Assembly (NCBI GenBank): GCA_020721815.1
Contig: DYMA01000001.1
Coordinates: 1 to 62,637 of the forward strand
DNA from: Sulfurovum sp.
GTDB lineage: Bacteria; Campylobacterota; Campylobacteria; Campylobacterales; Sulfurovaceae
Length of the DNA stretch: 62,637 nucleotides
Direction: 5' to 3'
Below the pieces are notes generated by a model. That model was not told the origin of the DNA. It made no database searches and saw only the letters and a program-made list of their open reading frames with translations. Position 1 is the first letter of the stretch. Every line of letters begins with the position of its first letter. Of this stretch, positions 19,997 to 49,029 are shown in pieces. The translations under genes and the position numbers were made by a program.

Positions 19997-20645
19997 TGCT
20001 GTCTCCTTTTTGCGACAAGCTCATAGTACTTGAACCTACGCCAAAGGTACTTTGAGTCATTTGGGTTAAAAAGCGTAAACGCTCCAACTCTTTGATATAT
20101 TTTGCCGATGATCCGCTAAATTCAAGATGCGTCGTAGAGGCGTGCAACAACTCGCTCCACAAGAGACCTCTACGCATCCATATCTCATCCTTATCGGAGG
20201 GTAGATTAATCTGCGAAGAGAAGGTGTGAATGGGTTGCGAAACAAAAAGCTCTTGAAACACTCCCTTTTCCATAAATCCTGCTTTGGCGTAAATTTTGCG
20301 GTTTTCAAAGACTCCTTTGACAAAGTATTCGCTCACCGAAAAAGAGGAACTAACGCTAAAAAGCATACCGTTGGCATCGTAGATTTGAAAATGGAGCTGT
20401 TGGGAGTTTAAATCGATACCGTGTTTTTGAAGTGTCTCATCGGTAATCTCCCAATAGAGGTAGTATTTGGATTGATTGACGGGCAACAACGTCACTCTAT
20501 CTTTGTAGTAGCGACTGGGAATAGGATACTCTCTAATGCCCTCTTGGTGGGCTTCTTGTGCCATAGTATCAATAGCATGGGTGGTACTGGAAAAACTATC
20601 TTTTGGAATACTCTCTTTGATTAAATATCTATTATTTTCATTCAT
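19989..20645 (-). CDS. DUF4912-domain protein (usual partner of the GH57 branching enzyme)
   Basis: DRVTLLPVNQSKYYLYWEIT motif. 8-nt overlap with the branching enzyme gene. Confidence 0.55.
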   Translation of the reverse strand: MNENNRYLIKESIPKDSFSSTTHAIDTMAQEAHQEGIREYPIPSRYYKDRVTLLPVNQSKYYLYWEITDETLQKHGIDLNSQQLHFQIYDANGMLFSVSSSFSVSEYFVKGVFENRKIYAKAGFMEKGVFQELFVSQPIHTFSSQINLPSDKDEIWMRRGLLWSELLHASTTHLEFSGSSAKYIKELERLRFLTQMTQSTFGVGSSTMSLSQKGDSND

Positions 20646-20653
20646 ACTCTCTC

Positions 20654-22267: not shown

Positions 22268-22287
22268 TTTTTCCTCCTTTTTTACTA

Positions 22288-23634: not shown

Positions 23635-23656
23635 GCGTTGCTATACCTTTAGGTTT

Positions 23657-28580: not shown

Positions 28581-28593
28581 GCTCTCTCCTGCC

Positions 28594-30684: not shown

Positions 30685-30693
30685 TTTTTACTA

Positions 30694-30838
30694 CTCGCTC
30701 CACCTCTTCCTAAGAGTGTGAAATAACTGCTAAAAAAGTGCTTCGACAAGCTCAGCACGAACGGTTTTACGCTATCCGTTCACCCTGAGCCTAGTCGAAG
30801 GGTTTATTTTTTCGCACTCTCTTCTGAGGCGGAGCGAG
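30694..30838 (+). repeat. Nested palindromic repeat, subfamily 1, copy A (REP/MITE-like)
   Basis: ctcgctccacctc...cttcgacaagctcagcacgaacgg-N11-ccgttcaccctgagcctagtcgaagg...gaggcggagcgag. Near-identical to 49090-49234 in the same orientation. Confidence 0.9.
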
Positions 30839-30866
30839 AAAGCTTTGCCTTTTGTGATAAAAGGTT

Positions 30867-35164: not shown

Positions 35165-36126
35165 GCGTGCACAAGCCTTTTGACCAAATCAATCAAATTG
35201 GGATCAATGGCATATTTTTGGGAATTGACGTGTTCAATCGTAACAAACTCAAATCGAGCGTTTTTATAGACGATTACGTTGGCACATTGATCGTTTGCAA
35301 GGAGATAATCAATAGCATAAGTGACAAATTGAGAAGCCATTAAGCGGTCATGGACGGTTGGATTGCCACCCCTTTGGACATGCCCCAAAATAGTAGCGCG
35401 TGTCTCAATGCCTACCTCATGGGAGAGCCAATCGACTATCTTTTGGGTTTGACCCGTACCCTCGGCTACAATGGCTACGATATAGATTCTTCCATTGGCA
35501 ATCTCGGCTTTGAGCTGTTTGCCAATCTTATCCAAATCGTAGGCAAGTTCTGGGACGATACACACCTCTGCCCCACTGGTAATAGCCGAAACTACCGCCA
35601 AATAACCGCAATCTCGCCCCATCGTCTCGACCACACACGCTCTTCTAAAAGAGGCGGAGGTATCTCGTATCGCATCAATGGCTTCACGAATGATATTGAG
35701 TGAGGTATCAACCCCCAAACAGTAATCCGTACCAAAAATATCGTTATCAATCGTAGCGGGAATACCCACGAAACTAATCCCAAAATCGTGATGAAATTGA
35801 TTGAGCGCCCTAAATGAGCCATCTCCTCCCAAAATAACAATACGGGTAATGCCGTGCTTTTGGAGGTTCTCGTAGGCTTGTTTGCGGTATGCGTACTCAA
35901 AAAAGCGTTTGGAGCGAGAGGAGCGTATCATTGTCCCTCCCTCGTGCATCATGCCTGCTACATCTCGATAGGTTGCCGCTTGAATCTTTCCATCAATAAG
36001 CCCCTCCAATCCATCATAGATAAAATAGGGTTTTAAATTATGGTGCAAAGCATAATCAACAAATTGTTTGATAGCAGGGTTCATCCCAGCACAATCTCCG
36101 CCTGAAGTCATAATTGCTATTGCCAT
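35161..36126 (-). CDS. pfkA: ATP-dependent 6-phosphofructokinase
   Basis: TSGGDCAGMNPAI, ILGGDGSFRA (Gly, not Asp, at the ATP/PPi discriminator), PATIDNDI and MGRDCGYLA. Confidence 0.9.
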   Translation of the reverse strand: MAIAIMTSGGDCAGMNPAIKQFVDYALHHNLKPYFIYDGLEGLIDGKIQAATYRDVAGMMHEGGTMIRSSRSKRFFEYAYRKQAYENLQKHGITRIVILGGDGSFRALNQFHHDFGISFVGIPATIDNDIFGTDYCLGVDTSLNIIREAIDAIRDTSASFRRACVVETMGRDCGYLAVVSAITSGAEVCIVPELAYDLDKIGKQLKAEIANGRIYIVAIVAEGTGQTQKIVDWLSHEVGIETRATILGHVQRGGNPTVHDRLMASQFVTYAIDYLLANDQCANVIVYKNARFEFVTIEHVNSQKYAIDPNLIDLVKRLVHA

Positions 36127-36138
36127 GGTTGCTCTCTT

Positions 36139-37395
36139 TTAGGCTTGAAATTTTTTAACTAAAATATCTTTGCCCAGTTCAACACCGGGTTGATTGTAGG
36201 TATTGACCCCCATCATCGCTCCCGTAATGGATGTTAAAAGCTCAAAATAGGCAATTAAAGCACCGATATTCTCTTCATTGGCTCTACTAAGTGAGATTTT
36301 ATCGGCAACCACACCGCTATCCATGACGCTTTGCATTGTAGCGTCGCATTGGGCATTGATAAGCTTCCCAAAGCTGTTGCCGTTGATGTAGTCTGCTTTT
36401 TCGATGCGTTTGAGTGAAATATTGGGGATGGTAATATCCTCCTCGAAATCATCAATATTCATAAATGTCACACTCTTATTGCGAGGTCCTTCGATGATGA
36501 GTTGCAAAAAGGAGTGCTGATCTACCGAACCCGTAAGCCCAATAGGCGTAAGTCCCACACGGTTGCCTTGGGTATCGATTTTGCCCAATGATTCGCCCCA
36601 AAGCTGTACATACCATTTGGAAAAATCTTCAAGCAAGTTGGAGTAAGCAAAAAGGACATTGATAGAGAGTGTTTGGTTGTTGGTATAGAGATAATAAGCT
36701 TTTTGAAGCAGATGCTCCTCTTGACGCTCAAAAAATCTATCAATTAAATCACCTGCACCCTTAAGCAACGCCTCCACATCGTATCCCATAAGAAAAAGCG
36801 GCACGATGCCAACGGCACTCAAAACCGAAAAGCGTCCCCCTACGTTGCTGGGCATATTAAACTCTTTGATACCGTACTCTAGGGCAAATTGAGACAAAAT
36901 TGAACCAGGATCGGTAATAACAATGAGTCGTTTGGCATCGTCTGAAGCAAAATCAAAATCCAAATACGCCACAATAGCCTTGAAAGTAGAGATAGTCTCA
37001 ATCGTCCCACCCGATTTGGAGATGAGGATAATAGCCAAAGACTCTTTTTGAAGCTTTTTGAGTTTGGATGCGATATCAACGGGGTCGGAGTTTTCAAAAA
37101 ATATTAGCTCTTTGGCGTTGGTACGTTTGTGACAAAGCAACGAATCAATCGCTTTAGCCCCCAACGAAGAGCCACCAATGCCCACAACCACCACCGTTTG
37201 AGCTTCCATTAGCACACTGTTATCTTGCGTATAAGCCTTAAGCTCATGAATCACCTCTTGTGAAGTAACGGGAAGTTTGTAGTAGCCAATCTCACCGCTT
37301 TGGCACTCGTGTTGCACCTTTGTAAAAGCATCCTCAATCACGTGATTGGTATCTGTTGTTTCATAAAAATTTGTTGGTCTGTGAAAGGTTATCAT
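36139..37395 (-). CDS. pgi: Glucose-6-phosphate isomerase (short bacterial type)
   Basis: VVVGIGGSSLG, SKSGGTIET, GGRFSVLSAVG and QHSFLQLIIEG motifs. Confidence 0.88.
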   Translation of the reverse strand: MITFHRPTNFYETTDTNHVIEDAFTKVQHECQSGEIGYYKLPVTSQEVIHELKAYTQDNSVLMEAQTVVVVGIGGSSLGAKAIDSLLCHKRTNAKELIFFENSDPVDIASKLKKLQKESLAIILISKSGGTIETISTFKAIVAYLDFDFASDDAKRLIVITDPGSILSQFALEYGIKEFNMPSNVGGRFSVLSAVGIVPLFLMGYDVEALLKGAGDLIDRFFERQEEHLLQKAYYLYTNNQTLSINVLFAYSNLLEDFSKWYVQLWGESLGKIDTQGNRVGLTPIGLTGSVDQHSFLQLIIEGPRNKSVTFMNIDDFEEDITIPNISLKRIEKADYINGNSFGKLINAQCDATMQSVMDSGVVADKISLSRANEENIGALIAYFELLTSITGAMMGVNTYNQPGVELGKDILVKKFQA

Positions 37396-37428: not shown

Positions 37429-37470
37429 TTTTTTGATTACATAATAGTCTCAAACGAAACCTATTTTATC

Positions 37471-37592
37471 TCACTCCACGACATATTCAATTTATCGTTC
37501 GTACTGAGCTTGTCGAAGTACATCAAACTCAAGACCCTTCGACAAGCTCAGGGTGAACGGATACGATATTTTTTACTCTGTCGTGGAGTAAG
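37471..37592 (-). repeat. Nested palindromic repeat, subfamily 2, copy B (reverse complement of copy C)
   Basis: tcactccacgac...gttcgtactgagcttgtcgaag-N-cttcgacaagctcagggtgaacgg...gtcgtggagtaag. The reverse complement aligns with 46802-46924, with about 5 substitutions and 1 indel by hand alignment. Confidence 0.9.
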
Positions 37593-37760
37593 CTATTTTA
37601 TAATCAACTTGTCTGAGTCTTTACAGTAATATTACTATAAATTTCTTTATTTTCTCATAAAATAAGCAAAACTTAGCATAATAATTGATGGAAGTTATGC
37701 TCTAAAGTTTGAAAGTTAAATATAAATTAGAAATCTACAGCACAATTACCACAAGTCAAA

Positions 37761-38216
37761 TCACCGCAACCCTTGTTCTAGTGCATCTACTATCTCCCTT
37801 TGCAAAACCTCTCTATCGACACTTTGTATATCTAAAACATGGACATAGAGAGAGTCACCATCGAGTTCTAGGGTGATAGTGCCAGGGGTTAGAGTGATGG
37901 CATTGGCTAAGAGGAGCTTGTCGTGATTGGTTTTTAGGGTGGTTTTGAGCTTGACTATGCCCGTATTAATAGGGAGTTTGGGGTTGAGGACTATTTTGGC
38001 TACTTCTATGTTTGAGGCTATGAGGCTTTTGAAAAAGAGCGGTGCAAAGTGTAAGTATTGACGGATGATACTTGCTAATTCAAAGCTTCCACTAGGAGTA
38101 AAGTAACGAGCCACCACAAAGGCAACGACTGCCCCTACTGCCAACTCTTGGATATCGAGTGAGTTGGTAAGTCCCATCCAAACCAACAACAAAAGTATAA
38201 ATTTTCCTATCATCAC
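37761..38216 (-). CDS. MrpE/MnhE-like subunit
   Basis: SNIEVAKIVLNP...LLLANAITLTPGTITLELD...LYVHVLD is the MnhE signature. Last gene of the cluster. Confidence 0.7.
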   Translation of the reverse strand: MMIGKFILLLLVWMGLTNSLDIQELAVGAVVAFVVARYFTPSGSFELASIIRQYLHFAPLFFKSLIASNIEVAKIVLNPKLPINTGIVKLKTTLKTNHDKLLLANAITLTPGTITLELDGDSLYVHVLDIQSVDREVLQREIVDALEQGLR

Positions 38217-38605
38217 TTATCCTTTGGGAAATACAAAAAGTTATCGGCTTTATCGTCCGCCCAGATACACTCATTTTCCAGTTTGAGCGAATTGGGTGGG
38301 CAAACATCGGTACAGAGACTGCACCAGCAGCAACGACCGTAATCTATACGAGGGATACACCCACTGGCATTTTTTGGATTGACATCTTTGGCTATCGTTA
38401 CCATGTCAATTGCCTCATTCATACAAACATCTTGGCAGTTGGCACACCCTATGCAGTCGGCTAGTAGGTTGGTATGAAAACCTCTGTAGCCATCTATCTG
38501 CTCTTTTTTTACTTCAGGATAACAGATGGTTTTGGGGTGTTCAAAGAGCTTTTTGACGGCCAAAAACGGGCTGAGAGTCCCTTTTATATCAGGTGAAAAT
38601 TGCAT
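38213..38605 (-). CDS. NuoI/MbxN-like 2x[4Fe-4S] ferredoxin subunit
   Basis: CIGCANCQDVC and CCWCSLCTDVCP cluster motifs. Start set at MQFSPD (38605), 2 nt after the upstream stop. Confidence 0.85.
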   Translation of the reverse strand: MQFSPDIKGTLSPFLAVKKLFEHPKTICYPEVKKEQIDGYRGFHTNLLADCIGCANCQDVCMNEAIDMVTIAKDVNPKNASGCIPRIDYGRCCWCSLCTDVCPPNSLKLENECIWADDKADNFLYFPKDK

Positions 38606-38607
38606 CT

Positions 38608-39723
38608 TTATCGCTCCATTTCGGGTGGGCAAATACCCAGTGAGTTCATAATGAGAGCCACATTGGATAGCTCTTCATCTACCAATAGATTTTCGAGTAG
38701 CGTAAAGCCATGAATGAGTGAGGGACCTTTGACTTGCATTCGTCTAATAAACTCTGAGCCATCCCCTGCCATATAGTAGCCAAACTCTCCACGAGCCGAT
38801 TCAGTAGCTACATAAATATCCTCTTTTGGGAGTTTAAACTTGCGATGTTTTGGGAGCTTTTGCATGATAGCTCCCTCGCTGGGCATCTGAGCTATTACTT
38901 GTCTAAGTATCTTGATAGACTCTACCATCTCACCTCTTCGTACCAACGCACGGCTATAGACATCGCAACCCTCATACGTAGGTATCTCAAAATCAAGCTT
39001 ATCATAAACAAGATAGGGGTTATCTCGCCGCACATCTCGCTCTATTCCGCAACCTCGAAGGACTTGCCCAACATAGCCATTTTTGAGGGCTTCATCTCTA
39101 TTGACCACGCCCACGCCTATTGCTCTCTTTTTGAAGGTACTGTTTTCAAAAAAGATACTATCATAAGCAAGAAGTCTCCCCTCTAGGTAGTCCAAAAGCT
39201 GCGCTAACTTCTCCAAAAATCCATTAGGCAACTCTCGCCTAACGCCACCTGGGTAGATATACATATGATAGACTCGCCCACCTGTTAGCTCCTCAAAGAG
39301 ATCAAGTATCAAGTCTCTATCGTAAACACTCCATTGACCCACGACTCCTAGTCCAATAGAGCCACTTTGTCCACCCATCCATAGCATTTGGGCGGCTAGT
39401 CTCGCCATCTCTAGCACCATGACACGGATATATTTTGCTCTTTGGCTTATCTCTATACCTGCCAAACCCTCGACGGCTCTAGCGAAATTTTCCTCATTTG
39501 GGTCTGGTTCGGGGACGCAGATGCGACACACTATCGTAAAGGCTTGAATGATGGTTCGTCGTTCGATAAGTTTTTCAAAGCCTCGGTGGAGGTAGCCCAC
39601 ATGCGTCCTGGCCCCTTTGATGGTCTCGCCTAGAAGGTCTAGCTCCATGCTCATGTTGCCTGTGATACCTGGGTGTTGCGGGCCATGGTATATTTTGATG
39701 AGTCTATTGTCGTTATTTTCCAT
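38608..39723 (-). CDS. NuoD / group-4 [NiFe]-hydrogenase large-subunit-like catalytic subunit with an incomplete Cys set
   Basis: GPQHPG..., HVGYLHRGFEKL, then IVCRICVPEPD (CxxC). The C-terminus reads SLGICPPEMER: one Cys, with Glu at the second Cys position. Confidence 0.85.
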   Translation of the reverse strand: MENNDNRLIKIYHGPQHPGITGNMSMELDLLGETIKGARTHVGYLHRGFEKLIERRTIIQAFTIVCRICVPEPDPNEENFARAVEGLAGIEISQRAKYIRVMVLEMARLAAQMLWMGGQSGSIGLGVVGQWSVYDRDLILDLFEELTGGRVYHMYIYPGGVRRELPNGFLEKLAQLLDYLEGRLLAYDSIFFENSTFKKRAIGVGVVNRDEALKNGYVGQVLRGCGIERDVRRDNPYLVYDKLDFEIPTYEGCDVYSRALVRRGEMVESIKILRQVIAQMPSEGAIMQKLPKHRKFKLPKEDIYVATESARGEFGYYMAGDGSEFIRRMQVKGPSLIHGFTLLENLLVDEELSNVALIMNSLGICPPEMER

Positions 39724-40240
39724 CTTTTGACTCCTTCGCCTGGGCTTTTCTTCGTTTTACCTCTGCTTTGACATCTTTGTTGTCTTCTCTTCCTATCCTA
39801 AAGTCAAAATGCTCATTGACATAGGCTAATGTATCAAACTCCCTGCGAAGTGGCGGTATCTCATTCCAGTTTTCCAAAGCAAAATCATAGAGTGTGTCGT
39901 TGCCTCTAAAGTTGATACCGTACATCTCGTGAAGGTCACGCTCCATCACCTGAGCTTGTGGATAGAGGTTGAGGAGTGTGGGCAAAGAGCAATGCACTCT
40001 ACTGATGCGTACCTCTACCATAAGGTTTTTATCCCTCTCCTTGGTGGTAAGGATATAGTTGAGAGCAAACACCTCATCCTCTATCCAATCGGTACAGGCT
40101 ATTTGCGAGAGGGTGATAAAGTTGCTGTTGATGGAAACAGAGGAGAGTATCTCTACAAGCTTATCGGACTCTATCTGGAGCTTGTAGAGTCTCGGAGCTT
40201 TCTCTACTATCTCGTAATGTTTTTTCAAAAATTCTATCAT
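39713..40240 (-). CDS. NuoC/MbxK-like subunit
   Basis: 30-kDa subunit fold signature (VMERDLHEMYGINF...). Overlaps both neighbours. Confidence 0.8.
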   Translation of the reverse strand: MIEFLKKHYEIVEKAPRLYKLQIESDKLVEILSSVSINSNFITLSQIACTDWIEDEVFALNYILTTKERDKNLMVEVRISRVHCSLPTLLNLYPQAQVMERDLHEMYGINFRGNDTLYDFALENWNEIPPLRREFDTLAYVNEHFDFRIGREDNKDVKAEVKRRKAQAKESKDGK

Positions 40241-40863
40241 TGGTTCATCCCTGCAAAGTTCTCTTCAAAGGTTGGAGTAGTGTTTTTGCCAAATATCTTC
40301 TCTTGGTTGGCTCTATAGAAAGCATTGTTTTCTCTGTATTGGATATAGCCTGCCTCGCTTTTGGCGTTTCTGATATTGTCTTGGAGTTTGACAAAGCCCT
40401 CGATAAGTGCTTCGGGTCTGGGCATACAGCCGTTGATGTACATATCTACAGGAAGATACTCATCGAGCTTTTTGATGGTGTTGTAGCTATCCCAATACAT
40501 ACCGCCGTTGATGGTACAACTCCCTAATCCTATGACATACTTTGGTTCATTCATCTGTTCATAGCTTCGTATTACTCGTTTGAGTGTTTTGTAGGAGCAG
40601 TAGCCTGAGACGATGAGAATATCGGCTTGTCTAGGAGTCGCTACGCCTACGACACCGAGTCGCTCTATATCGTAACGACTCGTAAAGATAGGAGGCATCT
40701 CTATCGCCCCACAACCTGTACCATAAGCTAGGACAAACATACTCCTTGCACGAAACCAATCGACGGCTTTTTGAATGATGCTTTGTGTATTTTTGATGGA
40801 GTACTCTTCATTGTCCAAAACTTTTTGTTGGTCTATAAATCCCTCTTGGGTATTTTCTGGCAT
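40237..40863 (-). CDS. NuoB/MbxJ-like small subunit ([4Fe-4S] carrier)
   Basis: GTGCGAIEM, GLGSCTINGG and NGCMPRPE motifs. Start set at MPENTQ (40863) to avoid overlap with the NuoH-like gene. Confidence 0.85.
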   Translation of the reverse strand: MPENTQEGFIDQQKVLDNEEYSIKNTQSIIQKAVDWFRARSMFVLAYGTGCGAIEMPPIFTSRYDIERLGVVGVATPRQADILIVSGYCSYKTLKRVIRSYEQMNEPKYVIGLGSCTINGGMYWDSYNTIKKLDEYLPVDMYINGCMPRPEALIEGFVKLQDNIRNAKSEAGYIQYRENNAFYRANQEKIFGKNTTPTFEENFAGMNQ

Positions 40864-40873
40864 ACTTTTTCCT

Positions 40874-41752
40874 TTATACAAACAGAAGTCCAACTAGGGC
40901 AATACCTGTCGGAACTCTTACTAAAAACTCAACACTCTGTGCGGTAGTAAATCTCGCATAGACATTACCTACCAACACTGCCACCAAAAAGAGTACAAAA
41001 GTTTTGGCGACTAGCTCCACAAGACTCTGCGCCCCTCCCAAAAAGAGATTCACCATCAAAAGAAGCTTTGCAAATGAAAAGATAGCACTTTGCGAGAGAG
41101 CAATAGCAAAAAACTTTCCACTAAACTCTGTAGCAGGTCCACTGTAAACCTCTTGGGGTGCGCCGACGACATCAAAGGGAGATTTGCCCATAAATCCCAA
41201 AAATGAGATAAATGCCCCAATAAAGAGCAGCGGATGGGTAAATGCGTTGTAGCCCTCACTTTGGTTGGTCATAATGACACCAATATCCGCACTATGGTTG
41301 GCTATCATAAGCCCGATAGCAGCGATATAAAAGGGTAACTCCAGCCCGATAAGGCGTGTCAAACCTCGTGTGATACCCATGACTCCAAAAGGATTGCCGT
41401 TGCTCCCTATACCCATAGCATTGCCCAAAGGTTCCAAAACCATGAGGTAAAGCACGAGGATAAGATTGCCGTATTGGCTCAAACCCACTAGATGCTCACT
41501 CCCATTGAGATAGGGAATAAAGAGGAGAGTTGTAATAGCCCCTATCATCATGATGATAGGTCCTGCATAAAACATCCAACCAAAGTTGGTCGAGTTCTCT
41601 TTGAGAAAGAGTTTGATACTATCAAAAAAGGATTGTGCCAGTGAGGGACCAAATCTACCGTGAACTCTTGCAGAGATATTTCTGTAGAGTCCATAGTATA
41701 AAAATCCAAAAATATACGCCAATGCTATCATAGCAAGCGAATCCAAAAACAT
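40874..41752 (-). CDS. NuoH/MbxM-like membrane subunit
   Basis: 292 aa, about 8 TM helices. N-terminal RFGPS (...HGRFGPSLAQSFFDSIKL) matches the NuoH-type R-x-GP-x-G-x-LQ-x-x-D region. Confidence 0.8.
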   Translation of the reverse strand: MFLDSLAMIALAYIFGFLYYGLYRNISARVHGRFGPSLAQSFFDSIKLFLKENSTNFGWMFYAGPIIMMIGAITTLLFIPYLNGSEHLVGLSQYGNLILVLYLMVLEPLGNAMGIGSNGNPFGVMGITRGLTRLIGLELPFYIAAIGLMIANHSADIGVIMTNQSEGYNAFTHPLLFIGAFISFLGFMGKSPFDVVGAPQEVYSGPATEFSGKFFAIALSQSAIFSFAKLLLMVNLFLGGAQSLVELVAKTFVLFLVAVLVGNVYARFTTAQSVEFLVRVPTGIALVGLLFV

Positions 41753-43371
41753 TATCTCACCCCCAAAAAAAGTAAAATGGTAAAAAAGAGCAAGATAAAG
41801 AGTCCAATATATTGCGTGCCTAGGCTGTAGAGTTTTTTGACCATGACTGAACTATCACCACTGAGTTTGGAGATATGCTCCCAGTATGTGGCAGTGCTAT
41901 TTTCTAAAATCACTCTGATAAAGCTGATGCGTCGTAGCTCCTGTCCCATGCCGTAGCCATAGTGGAGATTGTTTTGTGGGTCGGGAGTTTCGCCACAGTA
42001 GCTGATGTCGTATCTATCTCTCACTTTGACCGCTTTGCTCCTCATGGATGTCACTAGTAGCAAAATGAGTGCAAAAACAAGCCCAAAGAGTCCCATGAGA
42101 ACTCCACCGTTGAATGATGCAAAGGCTGTGTGGAGTTCAAAGAGGCTACTGTAGCTACTCACCTCAAAGCCAAGAGAGCCTAGGATAGGGTTGAACAGTG
42201 CGATACCAAGTGATGGCAAGATACCCAAAAGTACCAAGATGATAGCTGCTATAAACTGAGGAATATAAAAACTCATAGGAAGCTCTCTGTATCCCTCTTT
42301 GTCGCCACTTGCTTGTCCTAGGTAAATACCATAGATGAGCTTGTAGCAGTAGAGAAAGGCGGAGGCAGAGCTAAACATCACAGCTACGAGTAGGAGTGCT
42401 TTTTTCTTCTCTAGTAGTGTTGTATAGATGAGAAACTTGCTGTTGAATCCCCCGAGTGGAGGCATGCCTGCGAGGGCTATGATACCGATGAGCAGGAGGA
42501 TAAAGAGGGCAGGGTAGTCATAGAGGAGATTGCCTAGTTGGCTAAACTTTGTCTTGCCTGTGATATAGATGATAGAGGCGATATTGACAAAGAGCAGGAG
42601 CTTGACTAGCGTGTGAATGATGGTGTGATAGAGTCCAGCCTCGATACCACTCCCCTCCAAGAGAGCTAAAACAGTGACGATATAGCCTATCTGAGCGATA
42701 GAGGAGTAGGCTAAGAGTCTTTTGAGTTCCTCTTGTGAGATGGCTTTGAAAGTGGCTACAATGGAGGTAATGACACCCAACCACGCAAGTATATCAAAAA
42801 GTGAACCGTGAAGGTATCTATAGCCTATAATTTGCGAAAAGATGACAATAAAGAGAAATATCCCAGCTTTTGAGATGATGGCACTTAGTATCGCTGAGAA
42901 GATATGGTCAGACTCCTCGTAGGTATCAACCACCCAGTAGTGAAAGGGCATAATACCTGATTTGATAGCGATGGTGACAAAAAGCAAAAGCGTTATCGGC
43001 ACACGCAACGCCTCTGGTACTTTGCCAAAATCAATCTCGCCGTAGAGTGTCGTACCTGCAAAAGCAACGATAAGGACGATAGCCCCAAGGAGTGCAAAAC
43101 CTGCTGCGAGGTTAAAGATAATATATTTTTGCAGCGTCTCTATCCTAGCACTTTTGGCGATGATAAAGTAGCTACTCCAGCTCATAATCTCCCACCCTAC
43201 AAAGAGTGTAATAAGGTCACTGGCATAAAATATAACTCCTAATGATGCAAAGAGGAGTATATGCAACGGCAAATCCCTCCTCTCGTTTTTAATCAAAAGC
43301 AAAGAGGCAAAGACGATGAGTGTCAAGCCAAAAAAGAGATTGCCCAGTGGGGTCATGGCAAAGTTAAACAT
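41752..43371 (-). CDS. MrpD/NuoL/M-like antiporter subunit (second copy, H'-like)
   Basis: 539 aa, polytopic. Conserved proton-pump-family blocks (WEIMSWSSY, PFHYWV, AYSSIAQIGY). Confidence 0.8.
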   Translation of the reverse strand: MFNFAMTPLGNLFFGLTLIVFASLLLIKNERRDLPLHILLFASLGVIFYASDLITLFVGWEIMSWSSYFIIAKSARIETLQKYIIFNLAAGFALLGAIVLIVAFAGTTLYGEIDFGKVPEALRVPITLLLFVTIAIKSGIMPFHYWVVDTYEESDHIFSAILSAIISKAGIFLFIVIFSQIIGYRYLHGSLFDILAWLGVITSIVATFKAISQEELKRLLAYSSIAQIGYIVTVLALLEGSGIEAGLYHTIIHTLVKLLLFVNIASIIYITGKTKFSQLGNLLYDYPALFILLLIGIIALAGMPPLGGFNSKFLIYTTLLEKKKALLLVAVMFSSASAFLYCYKLIYGIYLGQASGDKEGYRELPMSFYIPQFIAAIILVLLGILPSLGIALFNPILGSLGFEVSSYSSLFELHTAFASFNGGVLMGLFGLVFALILLLVTSMRSKAVKVRDRYDISYCGETPDPQNNLHYGYGMGQELRRISFIRVILENSTATYWEHISKLSGDSSVMVKKLYSLGTQYIGLFILLFFTILLFLGVR

Positions 43372-44758
43372 GGCTACCTCCTATAAGTGTTGTTGCGACG
43401 ACCTTGCAAACCGCAAGAAGAGTATCGGGGAAAATACCAAAATAGACGATAGCAGTCGCCATAAGCGATAGCAGTGCTTTGTGCAAGAGAGGTATTGATA
43501 GGCTCTCTTTTGTTTCATCTCCACCTCTGGCGTATCCCAAAAGTCTAAAGAGGTAAGCAGCCTCCACGAGAGAGACTAGCAAAATCACCCCTATCAGGAG
43601 ATACCCACCACTTAGAGCCAAGCCCTTGAGTATGGTAAGTTTGGCAATAAATCCACCAAATGGAGGCAATCCCAAAAGCGAGAGAAATCCAATGGCAAAG
43701 ATACTCATCAAAAAGAGTGAGCCAAATCGCCCAAAAATCTCTACCTTTGTGCTATGAAACTGCTGCTTTAAGATATCAAGAGACAAAAAGAGCATGAGTT
43801 TGGTGATAGAGTGAAGAGCTATCAAAAATATCGCTCCACTCACGGCTGTAACATTACCCGATGAGAGTGCTATAAAGAGTATCCCTATTTGACCGAGTGT
43901 GGAGTAGGCAAATATCCTCTTTAAATCCTTGCTTCCCAATGCGGAGAGTTCGGCAACAGCAAAAGAGATAGCACCAATAACCGCCAAAAAGGTTAGCTTT
44001 TGACTCTCCACGCCAAGCATATAGGCGATATGAAAAAAGAGAAAGATGTAGGCTTTGGAGAGTGTGGCACTAAAGAGTGCGTTGATTTGGTTGCCGCTGG
44101 CTTGATAGATATGAGCAACCCAAAAGTTGAGAGGAAAAATCTCCGCCTTGACACCAAACCCAATAAAGAGTGAGAGCAAAATCAAAAACTGCGTATGCGT
44201 CTCAATCGTAGCAAATCTCTGACCGATAGTCACCAAATCGAGCGAACCGATGCTAAGGTAGATACTTATAATAGCAATAAGGAGAAAGATAGAAGCTGCA
44301 AATCCGATAATCATATAACGAATCGCCCCACTGTAGGCTTGTTTGTCTCGTCCCAAAGAGGTGAGAATATAAGCCGTGACACTTGCCATCTCGAAAAATA
44401 TATAAATATTGAATATATCCCCACTCAAAACAAGCCCCATGAGACTTGCTAGAAGTATATTATTGAGAATAAATCTCTCTTTGCTGTTCTCGCCGCCCAG
44501 ATTGTAGAGCGAGAGGAGTGTCATGATAGTGATAAAAAGTATCACAAAAAAGAGCGATGCACTATCAAGCACAAAGGAGATACTCAGAGCCGAATCAAAG
44601 GAGATATTCTCACGCATTGGCAAAGCAGAGATGAAACCAATAGCAAGTCCAAGGAGTGCAAGGTTGAGAGCTACGGAGAGATATTTGAGATACTCTCTAA
44701 AAAAGGGTGCCAAAAATGAGGCAAGGAGCGGCAAAGCCACGAAATAGACCAAACTCAT
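43364..44758 (-). CDS. MrpD/NuoM/N-like antiporter subunit (first copy)
   Basis: 464 aa, polytopic. FFEMASVTAY, PLNFWV and AYSTLGQIG blocks. Confidence 0.8.
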   Translation of the reverse strand: MSLVYFVALPLLASFLAPFFREYLKYLSVALNLALLGLAIGFISALPMRENISFDSALSISFVLDSASLFFVILFITIMTLLSLYNLGGENSKERFILNNILLASLMGLVLSGDIFNIYIFFEMASVTAYILTSLGRDKQAYSGAIRYMIIGFAASIFLLIAIISIYLSIGSLDLVTIGQRFATIETHTQFLILLSLFIGFGVKAEIFPLNFWVAHIYQASGNQINALFSATLSKAYIFLFFHIAYMLGVESQKLTFLAVIGAISFAVAELSALGSKDLKRIFAYSTLGQIGILFIALSSGNVTAVSGAIFLIALHSITKLMLFLSLDILKQQFHSTKVEIFGRFGSLFLMSIFAIGFLSLLGLPPFGGFIAKLTILKGLALSGGYLLIGVILLVSLVEAAYLFRLLGYARGGDETKESLSIPLLHKALLSLMATAIVYFGIFPDTLLAVCKVVATTLIGGSHV

Positions 44759-45141
44759 GACTCTTCTCCCAATTCATTCATCTTGTCTATATCCAAATTG
44801 CCCGTGAGTTTGAAGTAATTGACAACAAAAGAGAGCGAGAGTGCCAAGACCGCAATGGCGATAACGATGGTTGTAAGTATCATCGCTTGCGGTACGGGAT
44901 CGACCATATTTACGCCAAACTCTGTCACCTTTTGCGTGACAATGGGGGCATCTTTGCCAACTTCAAAGTGCATGCCTATGAAGTACAAAAAGAGACTTGC
45001 CTCAGCGATAGATAGAGAGAGAAATATTTTGAAGAGATTTTTTTTGCTCATTGCACCAATCAAACCAATAGCCAAAAGCAAAAATGCACCGATGGTAATA
45101 ACTCCATGCAAAAAAGGTGTTTGGTTGAAACTATCTAACAT
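44755..45141 (-). CDS. MrpC/NuoK-like subunit
   Basis: 128 aa with three TM helices. Position and size match MnhC/MbxG. Confidence 0.65.
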   Translation of the reverse strand: MLDSFNQTPFLHGVITIGAFLLLAIGLIGAMSKKNLFKIFLSLSIAEASLFLYFIGMHFEVGKDAPIVTQKVTEFGVNMVDPVPQAMILTTIVIAIAVLALSLSFVVNYFKLTGNLDIDKMNELGEES

Positions 45142-45838
45142 CTTTTATCCTTATGAAATACTCAACAAGAGTACTAATCTCAGCAGAGACTTTGAGTCCT
45201 ACAAATATATAGATGAGCGGTATCACGCCCCCACTCCACAGTTTGCCCAACGTGCCTAGCGGCAAGAAATTACCAAAGAATCTATCGACAAGCAAAAGAC
45301 CCAAAATACCAACGAGGACAAATCCAGCACCACTGAGTGCCTCTACGAGAGTAGTCATTTTGTGATTTAGCTTAAACTCATTGTTTTTGGCCAAAAACAT
45401 CAGCAAAAAACCACTTGCAATGACCACGCCACCTTGAAATCCACCCCCAGGCGAGAGGTGACCATGAATGATAATATAGAGTCCAAAGAGGATGATGAGA
45501 GGAAAAAGCATATCGGCTCCTATTTTAAGGAGGGCATTGTCGTAGCTAAAGATATTCTCTTTCTCTTGCAGTCTCTCTATCCCCAAACCAATCCCAAAAA
45601 TAGACAAAAAGAGTATCGTAACCTCCCCTAGTGTATCAAGCCCCCTAAAGTAGGTGACTACCGAAGTGACGGCATTGGCGCTTTGTGTGGTGGTTTGGTT
45701 GATAGCCAAAAGCTCACTGCCCAGTGAACCAGAGAGGGGTTGAAAGCTCAGCAATATGCCCAAGAGCAAAATAGTCATGATGGATACGAGCAGTGAAACC
45801 ACGATGGTTTGTACTCTAATTTCTCTTTTTGGATTCAT
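45131..45838 (-). CDS. MrpB/MnhB-like subunit
   Basis: NAVTSVVTYFRGLDTLGE and HLSPGGGFQGGVV motifs of the MnhB domain. Confidence 0.75.
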   Translation of the reverse strand: MNPKREIRVQTIVVSLLVSIMTILLLGILLSFQPLSGSLGSELLAINQTTTQSANAVTSVVTYFRGLDTLGEVTILFLSIFGIGLGIERLQEKENIFSYDNALLKIGADMLFPLIILFGLYIIIHGHLSPGGGFQGGVVIASGFLLMFLAKNNEFKLNHKMTTLVEALSGAGFVLVGILGLLLVDRFFGNFLPLGTLGKLWSGGVIPLIYIFVGLKVSAEISTLVEYFIRIKDVR

Positions 45839-46083
45839 ACGTTGCGCCCCTTTTTACTAATCTGTAGGAGTGTTACCAACAAGACAACACCACTCGTCCC
45901 CACACCTATCACCGCTTCCGTTAGAGCTACATCGGGTGCGCTAAAGAGGACAAATAAGACAGCACTGCCCAAACCAAACCCCATAAATAAAATCACACTA
46001 TGAGCCAAATCGTTGTTGGATACAATAAAAATAGCCAAGAGAATAAGCATTGCAAAAATGCAAAGTACAATAAGCCCTATCAT
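45835..46083 (-). CDS. DUF4040 / MrpB N-terminal-like (MbhD-like) subunit
   Basis: 82 aa with the SAPDVALTEAVIGVG motif. Confidence 0.65.
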   Translation of the reverse strand: MIGLIVLCIFAMLILLAIFIVSNNDLAHSVILFMGFGLGSAVLFVLFSAPDVALTEAVIGVGTSGVVLLVTLLQISKKGRNV

Positions 46084-46397
46084 TTTTGCTCTCCCAAATC
46101 ATCTATGCCGCTCTTGTTTAAAAAGCCATTTTTGAGATAGCTACTACGAGCCAAGATAGACGATGAGAGCGGGTTGGTGAGGAGTATAAAAAGCCCCAAG
46201 AGCGAGAGCTTGAACCCAAGCGATGGGTCTAAAAATATCGCTCCTAGTATCACGAGCAGACTGCCCAAGGTAGAGGCTTTTGTGCCTGCGTGCATACGGG
46301 TGATAGTATCGGGCATACGCAACAGCCCAATCGCACTGATTATCAAGAGCAGTGTACCCAAAAACATAATAAAAAATCCAATACCATCAAGCATCAT
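46080..46397 (-). CDS. MrpG/MnhG-like subunit
   Basis: GLLRMPDTITRMHAGTKASTLG signature. Confidence 0.8.
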   Translation of the reverse strand: MMLDGIGFFIMFLGTLLLIISAIGLLRMPDTITRMHAGTKASTLGSLLVILGAIFLDPSLGFKLSLLGLFILLTNPLSSSILARSSYLKNGFLNKSGIDDLGEQK

Positions 46398-46644
46398 CGC
46401 TCCTTATCACATTGAATCGTGCAAAAACAATCGTACCCACGAAGCCTATGAGAGCAAAAACAAAAGCTATATCCAAATAGATGCTATCTTTGATGGTCAC
46501 AGACATAACCACCAAGAGTGATACTGCGATAATCCCCATCGTATCAAACGCCACAACTCTATCGGTGAGATGGGGTCCTATAAGAAAGCGAATAAACGAG
46601 AGGAGTATTGCAAAAAGAGTCATAATAATGAGAAATAGAGCCAT
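46387..46644 (-). CDS. MrpF/MnhF-like subunit (first gene of the cluster)
   Basis: LIGPHLTDRVVAFDTMG signature. 85 aa, three TM helices. Confidence 0.8.
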   Translation of the reverse strand: MALFLIIMTLFAILLSFIRFLIGPHLTDRVVAFDTMGIIAVSLLVVMSVTIKDSIYLDIAFVFALIGFVGTIVFARFNVIRSDDA

Positions 46645-46801
46645 ATAAGTAACCTTGCTTTAGTATTGTATATTTTGACTTTAGATTATAGTAGAAATAT
46701 ATATCATTATAATAACAGATATTAGACAAGATTTGGCTTTAAATGCAAAAGAAAATTACAATGAAGCGGGATAGTTATTCGTTACGAAACAAGAAATATA
46801 T

Positions 46802-46924
46802 CTTACTCCACGACAAAGCAAAAAAATATCGTATCCGTTCACCCTGAGCTTGTCGAAAGGTCTTGAGTTTGATGTACTTCGACAAGCTCAGCACGAACGA
46901 TAAATTGAATATGTCGTGAAGTGA
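46802..46924 (+). repeat. Nested palindromic repeat, subfamily 2, copy C
   Basis: cttactccacgac...ccgttcaccctgagcttgtcgaaagg-N-cttcgacaagctcagcacgaacg...gtcgtgaagtga. Inverted counterpart of 37471-37592. Confidence 0.9.
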
Positions 46925-46977
46925 GGAAATATATTTTAAAAATAGAAATAATTGTCATAATAAATAGGATAGAGTTA

Positions 46978-47019: not shown

Positions 47020-49029
47020 ATGAAAACATCCCTACTTTTTGGTATCCACTGCCATCAGCCTATTGATAATTTTGACCATGTTGTTTATGAGATCATCGAA
47101 AAATCCTATAAGCCCTTTTTTCAGGTTTTGGAGGGATTTCCCGAGTTTAAATGCTCGATACATTTTAGCGGTTGGATATTGGAGTTTGTTTACAAAAATG
47201 ACCCTGAACTGTTTGCTTTGATGCAACGACTCTCTCCTCAATTGGAGTTTTTTACAGGCGGTTACTACGAACCCATTTTGGCATCGATTTCAAGCAAAGA
47301 TAGAGTAGCTCAAATCGATAAACTCTCACGTTTTATCATCAAGCACTTCAACCAAACACCCAAAGGGCTTTGGCTTACCGAACGTATTTGGGATGACTCT
47401 ATTATCGATGATTTGGCAAAATGCAACATTGAATACGTCATTGTTGATGATTACCACTTGATAGCCTCAGGACACAATCCCAAAGATTTGCAAGGCTACT
47501 TTATGACCGAAAACAGCAACAACTCTATCGCACTTTTTCCCATTAGCAAAGAGCTACGTTACGCTATTCCTTTTACATCCATTGAGAAAACGATGCAAAA
47601 ACTTCACGACTTTAGAGAGTTTGAGGGCAAAAATGCCGCTATTATCTTTGATGATGGAGAGAAGTTTGGTATTTGGCCTAGAACCTACAAAAGAGTCTAT
47701 GAGGAGGGTTGGTTGGAGCAGTTTTTTACCCAAACCCTTAACGATGAATCGATTGAGGTGATGACCTATCAAGAGTACTACACCCAAAATCACGCTTTGA
47801 GATTGGTCTATTTGCCTACAGTCTCCTATCATGAGATGGGAGAGTGGTCGGTGTTGCGAAATATTAGCAACAATTACCACAAATTGCTTGAACAAGTCGG
47901 CGAGGATGAGTATCTCGTGCGTGGAGGCATTTGGAAGAACTTCTTTTTGAAATACAGCGAAAGCAACTGGATACACAAACGCTCCCTAGAACTCTCCAAA
48001 GAACGCATCAAAGGCAAAAAATACAAAAAGGCTCTCTTTAAAACCCAATGCAACGATGTATTGTGGCACGGAGTCTTTGGGGGCATCTATCTGCCCAATC
48101 TACGAGACAATGCCTATCGTTACATTATCGAGTGCGAAAACCTCAAAGAGATTAAAAACGAGTGCGTTGTCTATGATATTGATATGGATTCCTATTTGGA
48201 GTACAAGTTTTATACTCCCAAGCTCCTCACCATCATTAAGCCCAGCCACGGGGGACAAATCGTCGAGCTTGATATACGCAAAGAGTGCTTTAACCTCCAA
48301 AATACCCTCACACGCTACCATGAAGCCTATCACGACAAAATCCAAAAAACCGATGAAGCAGAGCTTGAAGCAATGGAAGAACCAGAAGATGAGAGTGCTA
48401 CTATCCACCACAATCTCCTCACTACGACAGAGGATATTGAACACATCGAGGATTGGTATCTCAAAAAATCCTCCATTGACCATATTGTCGCCGATACGTT
48501 GAGCCTTGAAACCTTTAGGACGTGCAGCTTCAAAGAGTACGGCGATTTTGCCAATCAGGCCTATTGCGTGACCGACTCAACCCAAGAGAGTCTATCACTT
48601 CAACGCAAAGGCGGCATCTATGCAACGCAAAAATACGATACCACACTTACCAAACATTTTGAGTTTAAAAACGGCAAAATTGCAACTCAAATCACGCTCG
48701 ATAGCACTTTTGAAACGCCTTGTTATTATGTAAGCGAGTGGAATATACATTTTGCCGATTATGAACGTGTCACGTTTAACGGTGAGCATTTAGGAGAGTC
48801 GATGGAGTTGCAAGACTCTGCGCTCATTATCAAAGACCAACATTTAAATAAAACCTTTATTTTTAAATTGGATGAAGTAGGCACGATTTACCTCTATCCC
48901 ACCAAAAGCATTAGCCAAAGCGAATCGGGGATAGACTACACCATCCAAGGCGTTACGATTGGTTTTGTCAAGCCTTTTGCAAAAACGCTCACCATGACAT
49001 ACAGCTTTGAGGCGGTTGGGTTGGGGTAA
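47020..49029 (+). CDS. GH57-family 4-alpha-glucanotransferase / alpha-amylase (Thermococcales type)
   Basis: All five GH57 regions are present: GIHCHQP, QLEFFTGGYYEP, WLTERIWD (nucleophile Glu), FDDGEKFG (acid/base Asp) and QCNDVLWHGVFGGIYLP. The length (669 aa) matches archaeal 4-alpha-glucanotransferases. Confidence 0.85.
   Translation: MKTSLLFGIHCHQPIDNFDHVVYEIIEKSYKPFFQVLEGFPEFKCSIHFSGWILEFVYKNDPELFALMQRLSPQLEFFTGGYYEPILASISSKDRVAQIDKLSRFIIKHFNQTPKGLWLTERIWDDSIIDDLAKCNIEYVIVDDYHLIASGHNPKDLQGYFMTENSNNSIALFPISKELRYAIPFTSIEKTMQKLHDFREFEGKNAAIIFDDGEKFGIWPRTYKRVYEEGWLEQFFTQTLNDESIEVMTYQEYYTQNHALRLVYLPTVSYHEMGEWSVLRNISNNYHKLLEQVGEDEYLVRGGIWKNFFLKYSESNWIHKRSLELSKERIKGKKYKKALFKTQCNDVLWHGVFGGIYLPNLRDNAYRYIIECENLKEIKNECVVYDIDMDSYLEYKFYTPKLLTIIKPSHGGQIVELDIRKECFNLQNTLTRYHEAYHDKIQKTDEAELEAMEEPEDESATIHHNLLTTTEDIEHIEDWYLKKSSIDHIVADTLSLETFRTCSFKEYGDFANQAYCVTDSTQESLSLQRKGGIYATQKYDTTLTKHFEFKNGKIATQITLDSTFETPCYYVSEWNIHFADYERVTFNGEHLGESMELQDSALIIKDQHLNKTFIFKLDEVGTIYLYPTKSISQSESGIDYTIQGVTIGFVKPFAKTLTMTYSFEAVGLG

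Follow-up and report, generated by a model that had tools for sequence, protein, structure and literature searches.

A 13-gene cluster very probably encoding an MBS-type complex in a Sulfurovum genome, with relatives in other sulfur-cycling bacteria

Organization of the gene cluster

The DNA analyzed here is a contig stretch of 62,637 nt (62.6 kb) from Sulfurovum sp. (assembly GCA_020721815.1, contig DYMA01000001.1, positions 1-62,637), referred to below as the window. It carries a cluster of 13 genes which very probably encodes a machine of the same type as MBS (membrane-bound sulfane sulfur reductase, formerly Mbx) of Pyrococcus furiosus, and neither a hydrogenase nor a complex I. The archaeal MBS uses ferredoxin to reduce polysulfide or DMTS, and couples this reaction to Na+/H+ translocation. 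In the list of open reading frames (ORFs) for the region between 35 and 50 kb, exactly 13 minus-strand ORFs fill positions 37761-46644 and overlap by 1-25 nt at 12 out of 12 junctions, so that they are taken to form one translationally coupled operon. All 13 proteins could be assigned to a Pfam family, with E-values ranging between 1e-17 and 1e-65, far beyond chance. The genes are listed from the first of the operon to the last.

46387..46644, minus strand: mbsB-like (MrpF), first gene of the operon; Pfam MrpF_PhaF, 1.7e-17
46080..46397, minus strand: mbsC-like (MrpG); Pfam PhaG_MnhG_YufB, 1.7e-22
45835..46083, minus strand: mbsD-like (DUF4040/MbhD; MrpA C-terminal homologue), 82 aa; Pfam MbhD, 8e-18
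45131..45838, minus strand: mbsE-like (MbhE and MnhB/MrpB domains), 235 aa; Pfam MnhB and MbhE; PDB 6u8y_E
44755..45141, minus strand: mbsG-like (MrpC/NuoK-like); Pfam Oxidored_q2, 7.6e-19
43364..44758, minus strand: mbsH-like antiporter-type subunit (MrpD-like), 464 aa; Pfam Proton_antipo_M; PDB 6u8y_H
41752..43371, minus strand: mbsH'-like second antiporter-type subunit (MrpA-N-like), with C-terminal lateral-helix region, 539 aa; Pfam Proton_antipo_M; PDB 6u8y_X
40874..41752, minus strand: mbsM-like (NuoH-like), membrane anchor of the peripheral arm; Pfam NADHdh, 9e-50; PDB 6u8y_M
40237..40893, minus strand: mbsJ-like (NuoB-like), carrying the proximal [4Fe-4S] cluster, proposed to be catalytic; Pfam Oxidored_q6; PDB 6u8y_J
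39713..40240, minus strand: mbsK-like (NuoC-like); Pfam Complex1_30kDa; PDB 6u8y_K
38608..39723, minus strand: mbsL-like (NuoD / [NiFe]-large-subunit-like), 371 aa; Pfam Complex1_49kDa; PDB 6u8y_L
38213..38632, minus strand: mbsN-like (NuoI-like, 2x[4Fe-4S]), electron-entry subunit, 139 aa, without fused flavoprotein; Pfam Fer4_9/Fer4_7; PDB 6u8y_N
37761..38216, minus strand: mbsA-like (MrpE), moved to the operon's 3' end; Pfam MNHE, 6.5e-38; PDB 6u8y_A

Both CxxCxxC...CP motifs are visible in the alignment of the N subunit, and the NCBIfam model NF006419 aligns residues 3-536 of H' to its positions 65-611.

These data bear out most of an initial annotation of the region, which had described 13 tightly packed or overlapping minus-strand genes with the same family assignments, flanked by pgi and by a GH57 gene. 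It had placed them on a Campylobacterota chromosome, the host being specifically Sulfurovum, and had favoured an Mbx/MBS over an Mbh type, in agreement with the two antiporter-like subunits, the count of 13 genes, the location of M before J and the best PDB matches, all to 6U8Y. Its statement that NuoA, NuoJ, NuoE, NuoF, NuoG, hyp genes, an endopeptidase, formate dehydrogenase (FDH) and CO dehydrogenase (CODH) are missing also stands: none was detected in the window by Pfam annotation of essentially all ORFs of at least 110 aa, on which all absences reported for the window are based.

Comparison with known complexes

The 13-subunit composition of MBS (A, B, C, D, E, G, H and H', plus M, J, K, L and N) is complete in the window, including two antiporter-like subunits, of which the 464-aa one corresponds to MbsH and the 539-aa one to MbsH'. 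In archaeal MBS operons the genes follow the order A-B-C-D-E-G-H-H'-M-J-K-L-N, A (MrpE) being the first. This order is not fully matched, as the genes from B through N are arranged identically in P. furiosus and in the window, but A (mrpE) is the last. The same 13 subunit types are found in the P. furiosus enzyme (PDB 6U8Y, PMC7684303), in which the two pump subunits H and H' are what sets MBS apart from MBH (PMC7684303); the subunits are 13 both in the window and in MBS, and 14 in MBH.

Nine of the 13 proteins (L, J, H', H, M, N, A, E and K) were compared with all PDB chains. For all nine the best match, by wide margins, was the corresponding chain of P. furiosus MBS. Bit scores are reported below, each followed by those obtained with chains of other complexes.

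L: 6u8y_L 298; Nqo4 220, MbhL 132, HycE 96
J: 6u8y_J 204; NDH-1 135, MbhJ 96
H': 6u8y_X 188; MbhH 114
H: 6u8y_H 163; MrpD 111, MbhH 98
E: 6u8y_E 144; MbhF 59
M: 6u8y_M 132; MbhM 64
A (MrpE): 6u8y_A 111; MrpE 79, MbhA 44
N: 6u8y_N 68; Nqo9 40-43, MbhN 34
K: 6u8y_K 64; NuoC 30

L is 40% identical to P. furiosus MbsL and 37% to Nqo4. Residues E128, K217, K248, H336 and K399 of MbsH' are all kept in the window H', as read by hand from the alignment of this subunit only; in the MbsM alignment, the equivalents of D196, E203 and E211 are kept in M, that is, three of the five acidic residues of this subunit. With respect to MBS, the window H' is shorter by about 65 aa at the N-terminus, N is made of 139 instead of 208 aa, and D, with 82 aa, is too short for the Trp-rich dimerisation tail.

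MBH, the membrane-bound [NiFe] hydrogenase of P. furiosus (PDB 6CFW), shares with the window cluster the Mrp-derived membrane arm, the NuoB/C/D/H/I-like peripheral module and the ferredoxin donor, but differs by its four NiFe cysteines, a single antiporter-like subunit, 14 subunits, the presence of MbhI and the location of M after L; the bit scores reached by the window subunits are some two- to three-fold lower with MBH chains than with MBS chains. Complex I/NDH-1 (Thermus thermophilus Nqo, PDB 4HEA) has a homologous Q-module and antiporter-like subunits. The window cluster is devoid of its N-module, NuoA, NuoJ, quinone ligands and tandem-Cys NuoB motif and has instead the MrpE/F/G Na+ module, which complex I does not have.

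Energy-converting hydrogenase-related (Ehr) complexes were reportedly dealt with by Marreiros et al. in 2013. The name is used as an umbrella for group-4-hydrogenase-like complexes without NiFe ligands (PMC6349859), which are found in diverse bacteria and form a heterogeneous class with partners that are not defined (e.g. the FDH-Ehr proposals). The window cluster falls within this definition, having a group-4-hydrogenase-like large subunit with an incomplete NiFe site, and Mrp-like subunits. MBS/Mbx itself is already known, within the broader Ehr class, and the window clade is, among Ehr complexes, specifically of MBS type: it has the full Mrp set and two pumps, and no dehydrogenase is fused to it or lies next to it.

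In databases, the close homologues of L (P0002-P0120) are all named "NADH-quinone oxidoreductase subunit D", both at NCBI and at JGI. The label is explained by the NCBIfam NuoD equivalog NF004739, which passes its cut-off (382.5 for the window L, against 360) despite the absence of the quinone-binding Tyr and His described below. Such a mislabel is a systematic annotation blind spot, and would inflate "complex I" counts in genomes of sulfur oxidisers.

Signature residues and phylogeny

Just two of the four NiFe cysteines, C85 and C385, are retained in MbsL, and in MbsJ only C28, C93 and C123 ligate the proximal [4Fe-4S] cluster, C25 being too distant; the open Fe of this cluster is the proposed site of S-S cleavage (PMC7684303). 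The corresponding positions were inspected in the window proteins and in the 80 loci returned by the genome scan described in the following section.

An intact four-Cys hydrogenase site, which the initial annotation had named as an argument against its own assignment, is not present in the window L: two of the four NiFe cysteines are kept (C69 and C365, equivalent to C85 and C385), while the other two positions are occupied by Glu (E72 and E368). The sequence reads C66-R-I-C69-V-P-E72 and C365-P-P-E368-M-E-R, compared with L-R-I-C-V-P-E and C-P-P-D-I-D-R in MbsL. The motif IVCRICVPEPDP is kept in 76 of 78 loci, and CPPE[IM]ER in 75 of 75. An additional cysteine, Cys66, conserved in the window clade and missing in MbsL, creates a CxxC (C-R-I-C). 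The quinone ligands of Nqo4 are also replaced, His38 by Thr21 and Tyr87 by Val70, whereas representatives of the NuoD class carry DRxDY and THG.

The J subunits could be aligned without gaps across the motif, which is YGTGCGAIEMPP in the window and FCTGCGGIEMPP in MbsJ (Y-G-T-G-C-G-A-I-E-M-P-P and F-C25-T-G-C28-G-G-I-E-M-P-P, respectively). The equivalents of C28, C93 and C123 are present, the cysteines of GSC and GCMPRPE being kept, and the non-ligating C25 is changed to Gly; the motif is invariant across the 80 loci. Since the C25 equivalent is absent, the proximal cluster of the window J has three predicted Cys ligands, with one Fe left open. The two-Cys L, the three-Cys J and the absence of the quinone Tyr and His identify the complex as neither an H2-evolving Mbh nor a complex I.

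A classification according to site residues was performed on 135 sequences, including the window L, four members of its clade, P. furiosus MbsL, Nqo4 and further representatives, namely the full-length ones among the best 150 matches of an exhaustive search. Three classes were obtained: hydrogenases (RxCGxC...CxxC), NuoD (DRxDY...) and a two-Cys class, comprising the window clade, P. furiosus MbsL, P0121, P0122 and P0123. In a neighbour-joining distance tree of L (58 taxa, 200 bootstraps), the window clade is grouped with P0121 in 200 out of 200 replicates, and separated, again in 200 out of 200, from all four-Cys hydrogenases.

The assignment to the MBS type is based on composition, gene order, similarity of the single subunits and site residues, taken together. 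An Mbh/hydrogenase identity was rejected according to bit scores, tree and the substitution by Glu of the second Cys of both the RxCGxC and DPCxxC pairs; the complex I identity suggested by the database label was rejected because the quinone ligands are gone, the NuoB motif has a single Cys and the subunit set is different. The differences from the archaeal enzyme (mrpE moved, C25 of J lost, an extra Cys in L, shorter H', N and D) amount to variations of a shared design. We know of no SurR-type regulation for a complex of the window type.

Distribution of the cluster

The proteins of the window share about 98% identity with those of locus L001, from a Sulfurovum metagenome-assembled genome (MAG) of Pozzo dei Cristalli, in the Frasassi caves, and the L homologue P0002 is annotated as "Sulfurovum sp. 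PC08-66"; the host is a Frasassi-cave Sulfurovum. The site description reports sulfidic water at 13 C and biofilms with up to 50% elemental sulfur, S(0) (PMC4288042). The window host is a mesophilic, sulfur-oxidising bacterium living in cave water of about 13 C, in contrast to the hyperthermophilic, fermentative archaeon which hosts MBS. Nuo, Psr and hydrogenases, and no Mbx/MBS-type complex, are named in the original study of the Frasassi Sulfurovum bins.

The distribution was evaluated by a pattern-based, non-exhaustive scan of one genome per species, which returned 80 loci. Carriers were found among Sulfurovum, Sulfurimonas, Sulfuricurvum, Nitratifractor and Arcobacteraceae, and in many Chromatiaceae, with an L identity of 65-75% (Allochromatium warmingii, A. 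palmeri, Thiocystis, Chromatium okenii, C. weissei, Thiococcus, Thiorhodococcus, Imhoffiella and Thiocapsa imhoffii), as well as in Ectothiorhodospiraceae MAGs and in a few Spirochaetales and "Fibrobacter" MAGs from sulfidic sites. Allochromatium vinosum DSM 180 was not returned by this non-exhaustive scan. The relatives are almost confined to sulfur-oxidising bacteria or bacteria from sulfidic habitats; thousands of metagenomic homologues also exist, all labelled NuoD. The level of L identity between Campylobacterota and Gammaproteobacteria suggests that the whole 13-gene module spread laterally among sulfur-cycling bacteria.

The same gene order, with mrpE last, is observed in every locus long enough to show it. 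The nearest outgroup cluster, that of P0121 (metagenomic contig L081, 1564-14054), whose L is 48% identical to that of the window, has the same Mrp and M-J-K-L architecture, a two-Cys L (VRMCVPE...CPPEIER) and a single-Cys J (GFGTGCGSIE), which makes this J motif older than the window clade. In the outgroup mrpE is the first gene, so that its terminal location, noted by the initial annotation as a departure from the mbx/mbh order, is a derived trait of the window clade. In the outgroup, moreover, H and H' are fused (1046 aa), N is joined to an NAD(P)H flavoprotein resembling GltD/SudA (593 aa, NCBIfam PRK13984 type), a DHO-dehydrogenase-like gene comes next, and a Crp-family regulator lies upstream. 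Judging from these genes, the L081 complex is probably an NAD(P)H-linked MBS-like variant, and the bare 139-aa N of the window argues by comparison for a free ferredoxin or flavodoxin as partner.

In Chromatium weissei, C. okenii, Allochromatium warmingii and a Thiocystis violascens MAG the cluster (L050, L055, L056 and L072) ends at L, around position 11098, and a search relaxed to E=10 gave no match to the N and mrpE genes. A restriction-modification/methylase-like ORF of about 1000 aa abuts L in L056 and L072. A frameshift interrupts the L gene of C. okenii LaCa in two contigs (L074, 2438-3534; L079, 10001-11090). In some purple sulfur bacteria, the module appears to be undergoing decay.

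A tightly conserved clade of MBS type, shared by mesophilic sulfur-oxidising Campylobacterota and by purple sulfur bacteria, appears to be undescribed: a literature search, which did not cover the Mbx/Ehr surveys of Schut et al. (2013) and Marreiros et al. (2013), found no report of MBS/Mbx in Sulfurovum, Sulfurimonas, Chromatiaceae or Campylobacterota. MBS has so far been treated as an archaeal, hyperthermophilic relic, and is contrasted in reviews with the molybdopterin polysulfide reductase "of mesophilic bacteria" (PMC8165549). Reconstructions of sulfidic ecosystems would accordingly overlook an energy-conserving, ferredoxin-linked sulfur reaction and miscount it as "complex I". Some carriers, such as Sulfurovum sp. 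CS9, Sulfurospirillum sp. 1612, Thiocystis violacea DSM 207/208 and Allochromatium palmeri DSM 15591, are cultured and in part genetically tractable, which makes the mechanism of MBS testable at moderate temperature.

Genomic context

The operon opens a run of co-directional genes, about 28 kb long, which includes, besides its 13 genes, a set of glycogen and glycolysis genes. The neighbouring features are the following.

36139..37395, minus strand: pgi, flanking the operon 3' of mrpE
18410..37395, minus strand: glycogen/glycolysis run (Pfam), part of the context and not of the complex
47020..49029, plus strand: divergent GH57 gene, 4-alpha-glucanotransferase/amylase; Pfam Glyco_hydro_57, AmyA-A_glucT_m and AmyA-gluTrfs_C

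No terminator-like site is present between mrpE and pgi. After the operon, the run includes pgi, pfk, a pyruvate kinase (pyk)-like gene, a glgC-like/PGM fusion, a GH57 gene, a GalT-like gene and glgA; it continues with a ROK glucokinase, a phosphorylase-like gene, mgtE, PGM, DUF4912 and a GH57 branching enzyme, down to position 18410. The three GH57 enzymes (branching, 4-alpha-glucanotransferase and one other) suggest a GH57-based glycogen system of archaeal/Thermotoga style. The remaining genes of the window are of chromosomal housekeeping type (two-component systems, purA, carA, petABC, hisG, coaX, TonB/ExbBD).

Some proteins of the run have an unusual organization. The pyk-like protein (33347-35164, minus strand, 605 aa) contains the PK barrel at residues from about 328 to 558 only, its N-terminal region of about 320 aa having no confident Pfam family; in the syntenic L001, where the order is pgi, pfk, glgC-PGM fusion, no tblastn match covers at least half of it. 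The fusion protein (30867-33350, minus strand, 827 aa) combines GlgC-like nucleotidyl-transferase/LbH and PGM/PMM domains. The phosphorylase-like protein (23657-25336, minus strand) is short, with 559 aa, and matches only the central part of Pfam Phosphorylase.

The conservation of the context was evaluated by tblastn of 17 flanking window proteins against the 80 loci. They were found in L001, from the same species, and in no other locus; glgP alone lies directly after mrpE in L013 and L014. An all-against-all clustering of flanking ORFs, together with Pfam annotation of 20 immediate neighbours from 12 other genomes, revealed no carbohydrate theme, the neighbours being YidC, UDG, an ABC transporter, acyl-CoA synthetase, trigger factor, Mfd, alanine racemase and FabH. 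A conserved synteny with glycogen genes was consequently rejected: the glycogen linkage is lineage-specific, and the unrelated housekeeping neighbours found elsewhere indicate that the 13 genes are a self-contained module inserted at different places.

The only recurrent neighbour is a 450-aa pyridine-nucleotide disulfide oxidoreductase with a single Cys (VPCAIPY), whose best solved relatives are the Pyrococcus CoA-disulfide/persulfide reductases (CoADR/NSR type). It was found in six Campylobacterota loci, in four orientations. It lies upstream or downstream of the cluster, at a distance of 26-210 bp, and may be on either strand:

L009, 537-1895: CoADR/NSR-type gene
L022, 1585-2937: CoADR/NSR-type gene
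L025, 1619-2971: CoADR/NSR-type gene
L027, 12018-13364: CoADR/NSR-type gene
L033, 12147-13514: CoADR/NSR-type gene
L036, 2678-4051: CoADR/NSR-type gene

No copy is present in the window, where glycogen genes form the context. In Pyrococcus, NSR and Mbx are the two enzymes induced by S(0). The presence of an NSR-type neighbour in six loci therefore provides an independent, modest support for a sulfane-sulfur function.

Proposed function and alternative explanations

The explanation which accounts best for these data, considered rather probable, is that the cluster encodes an ion-pumping ferredoxin:sulfane-sulfur oxidoreductase, plausibly serving, in this host, the anoxic fermentation of glycogen. 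Its two partners are graded separately: sulfane sulfur as the redox partner, suggested by the residues of J and L, is held with slightly more than even confidence, and glycogen catabolism as the physiological partner in the Sulfurovum host, suggested by linkage only, is a tentative and rather doubtful assignment. By homology to MBS, ferredoxin or flavodoxin, the putative donors, would dock on the short NuoI-like N subunit, and electrons would pass through its two [4Fe-4S] clusters to the three-Cys proximal [4Fe-4S] cluster of J, with its open Fe. There the S-S bond of polysulfide, or of another sulfane-sulfur carrier, might be cleaved, within the chamber which J, L, M and the H' loop form together, and sulfide would be released downstream. 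Turnover at J would be coupled, via the region of M and of the H' loop, to the H and H' pumps and to the Mrp-type Na+/H+ module; H and H' may pump H+, the Mrp-derived distal module may exchange Na+ for H+, and the resulting ion gradient could drive ATP synthesis. Under anoxic conditions with plentiful S(0), the cell would ferment its stored glycogen and reduce ferredoxin by means of pyruvate:ferredoxin oxidoreductase (POR), and the complex could re-oxidise this ferredoxin with sulfane sulfur, conserving energy. Such a logic parallels that of sugar fermentation with S(0) in Pyrococcus and of the dark, glycogen-driven S(0) reduction in Chromatium; the latter, at the expense of stored S(0), was described by van Gemerden (1968), as cited in 10.1101/487272.

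The initial annotation had named no acceptor for the electrons. This can now be narrowed, as the site residues of J and L match those which define sulfane-sulfur reduction in MBS. Its suggestion of a role in glycogen catabolism fared less well: glycogen genes do lie on both sides, in a run larger than it had indicated, but the linkage is local and the role is weakened: relatives carry the cluster at unrelated loci, apart from L001 and from glgP in L013 and L014, a finding which the initial annotation had listed among those speaking against its view. The question of which enzyme couples fermentation of storage glycogen to S(0) reduction in sulfur bacteria nevertheless becomes a testable one, as does that of how sulfur-oxidising autotrophs with a reductive tricarboxylic acid (rTCA) cycle balance or generate reduced ferredoxin.

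Several observations weigh against the proposed function. The acceptor is assigned purely by homology to one archaeal enzyme, whose L is 40% identical, and in the distance tree the window clade is grouped with P. furiosus MbsL, P0122 and P0123 in 111 of 200 replicates, a moderate value. No ferredoxin or POR gene was found in the window. The hosts are known as sulfur oxidisers which also carry the molybdopterin polysulfide reductase Psr, so that there is no obvious need for another sulfur reductase. The glycogen linkage is not maintained among relatives, the truncated or frameshifted clusters of several Chromatiaceae indicate that the module is dispensable there, and the clade-specific Cys66, missing in MbsL, may indicate a different substrate.

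In one alternative the reaction runs in reverse, ion-motive force driving electrons uphill from the potential of sulfide/polysulfide (about -260 to -270 mV) to that of ferredoxin or flavodoxin (about -420 mV or lower), in order to feed the 2-oxoglutarate and pyruvate synthases of the rTCA cycle in Campylobacterota or nitrogenase in purple sulfur bacteria. In principle, machines of the complex I type can run in either direction, and the carriers are nearly all sulfide/sulfur oxidisers, chemotrophic and phototrophic, and not classical sulfur-reducing fermenters. The Frasassi Sulfurovum bins use the rTCA cycle, for which 2-oxoglutarate:ferredoxin oxidoreductase is needed, and encode nitrogenase, according to their description. 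As the forward MBS reaction conserves about 42 kJ per 2 e- (PMC8165549), its reversal by few ions would be thermodynamically plausible. A reverse operation is nonetheless regarded as unlikely, for no such activity has been reported for MBS, the window operon is linked to catabolic, direction-specific pfk and pyk and to glycogen-degrading enzymes, and the recurrent CoADR/NSR-type neighbour belongs, in Pyrococcus, to the S(0)-reducing response; the patchy distribution within the group and the truncation in some Chromatiaceae would also be unexpected for an essential ferredoxin-reducing step. A bidirectional enzyme, working in reverse to supply ferredoxin for the rTCA cycle or nitrogenase and forward, as an S(0) reductase fuelled by glycogen, under anoxic or dark conditions, would also be the enzyme behind van Gemerden's 1968 observations in Chromatium; it is given a similarly low probability. 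So is a different acceptor, namely an organic or protein-bound persulfide or disulfide in place of inorganic polysulfide (CoA persulfide/disulfide, glutathione(amide) persulfide, or sulfane sulfur bound to TusA, DsrE or rhodanese), to be handled by the L cysteines C66-x-x-C69 and C365, located beside the proximal cluster. Cys66 makes a CxxC that is invariant in, and restricted to, the window clade; the CoADR-type enzyme adjoining the cluster in six loci implies CoA-persulfide/CoA-disulfide chemistry nearby, and cytoplasmic sulfur of sulfur oxidisers is known to travel as persulfides along the Rhd-TusA-DsrE relay. The argument, however, depends on one residue, neither the window nor the sampled loci show sulfur-relay genes beside the cluster, and in P. 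furiosus the L cysteines equivalent to those of the window are dispensable for catalysis (PMC7684303).

The two remaining alternatives depart from the MBS type itself. A complex-I-like ferredoxin (or NADH):quinone oxidoreductase would fit the NuoD name carried by all close homologues at NCBI and JGI, the NF004739 score and the 37% identity of L to Nqo4, and the window does encode a bc1 complex, implying that the organism uses quinones. It is considered very unlikely, given that Tyr87 and His38 are replaced, that J has a single Cys and not the NuoB tandem CC, that NuoA, J, E, F and G are missing while a full MrpE/F/G distal module, which complex I lacks, is present, and that every tested subunit is nearer to MBS than to any complex I/NDH-1 chain. 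An H2-evolving group 4 [NiFe] hydrogenase of Mbh type, which the combination of Mrp and NuoBCDHI modules resembles, is practically discounted: Glu replaces two of the four NiFe-ligating cysteines across the loci, L is separated from all four-Cys sequences in every bootstrap replicate and scores 132 bits with MbhL against 298 with MbsL, two antiporter-like subunits and 13 genes, not 14, are present, and the window has no hyp or endopeptidase genes. According to the original study, the Frasassi Sulfurovum has other hydrogenases elsewhere in the genome; hyp genes located outside the window are thus uninformative in this respect.

A palindromic repeat and other observations

A palindromic element of about 140 nt, resembling miniature inverted-repeat transposable elements (MITEs) or repetitive extragenic palindromic (REP) sequences, occupies four intergenic gaps of the glycogen locus. 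Its two full copies are 95% identical and bracket the operon.

37462..37599: full copy 1, in the mrpE-pgi gap
46795..46933: full copy 2, inverted, in the mrpF-GH57 gap
30738-30803 and 49134-49199: partial copies

The element has a terminal inverted repeat, ACTCCACGACA/TGTCGTGGAGT, and an inner stem, GAGCTTGTCGAAG/CTTCGACAAGCTC, with a minimum free energy (MFE) of -51 kcal/mol for 151 nt. It matches no Rfam family, and neither the 98%-identical strain L001 nor any other locus carries it. Its interpretation as the signature of a mobile cassette was rejected: the two further partial copies, and its absence elsewhere, indicate a dispersed, strain-specific repeat, and not a boundary of the cluster. 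Sigma70-like hexamers are found in the element, facing both ways, and the element could supply or link promoters for pgi, the GH57 gene and the operon.

A gene for a transposase of the PD-(D/E)XK nuclease family (8330-9223, minus strand; PDDEXK_2, 1.7e-54) is located amid the housekeeping genes of the window, and a related PDDEXK_9 gene adjoins the cluster in locus L012.

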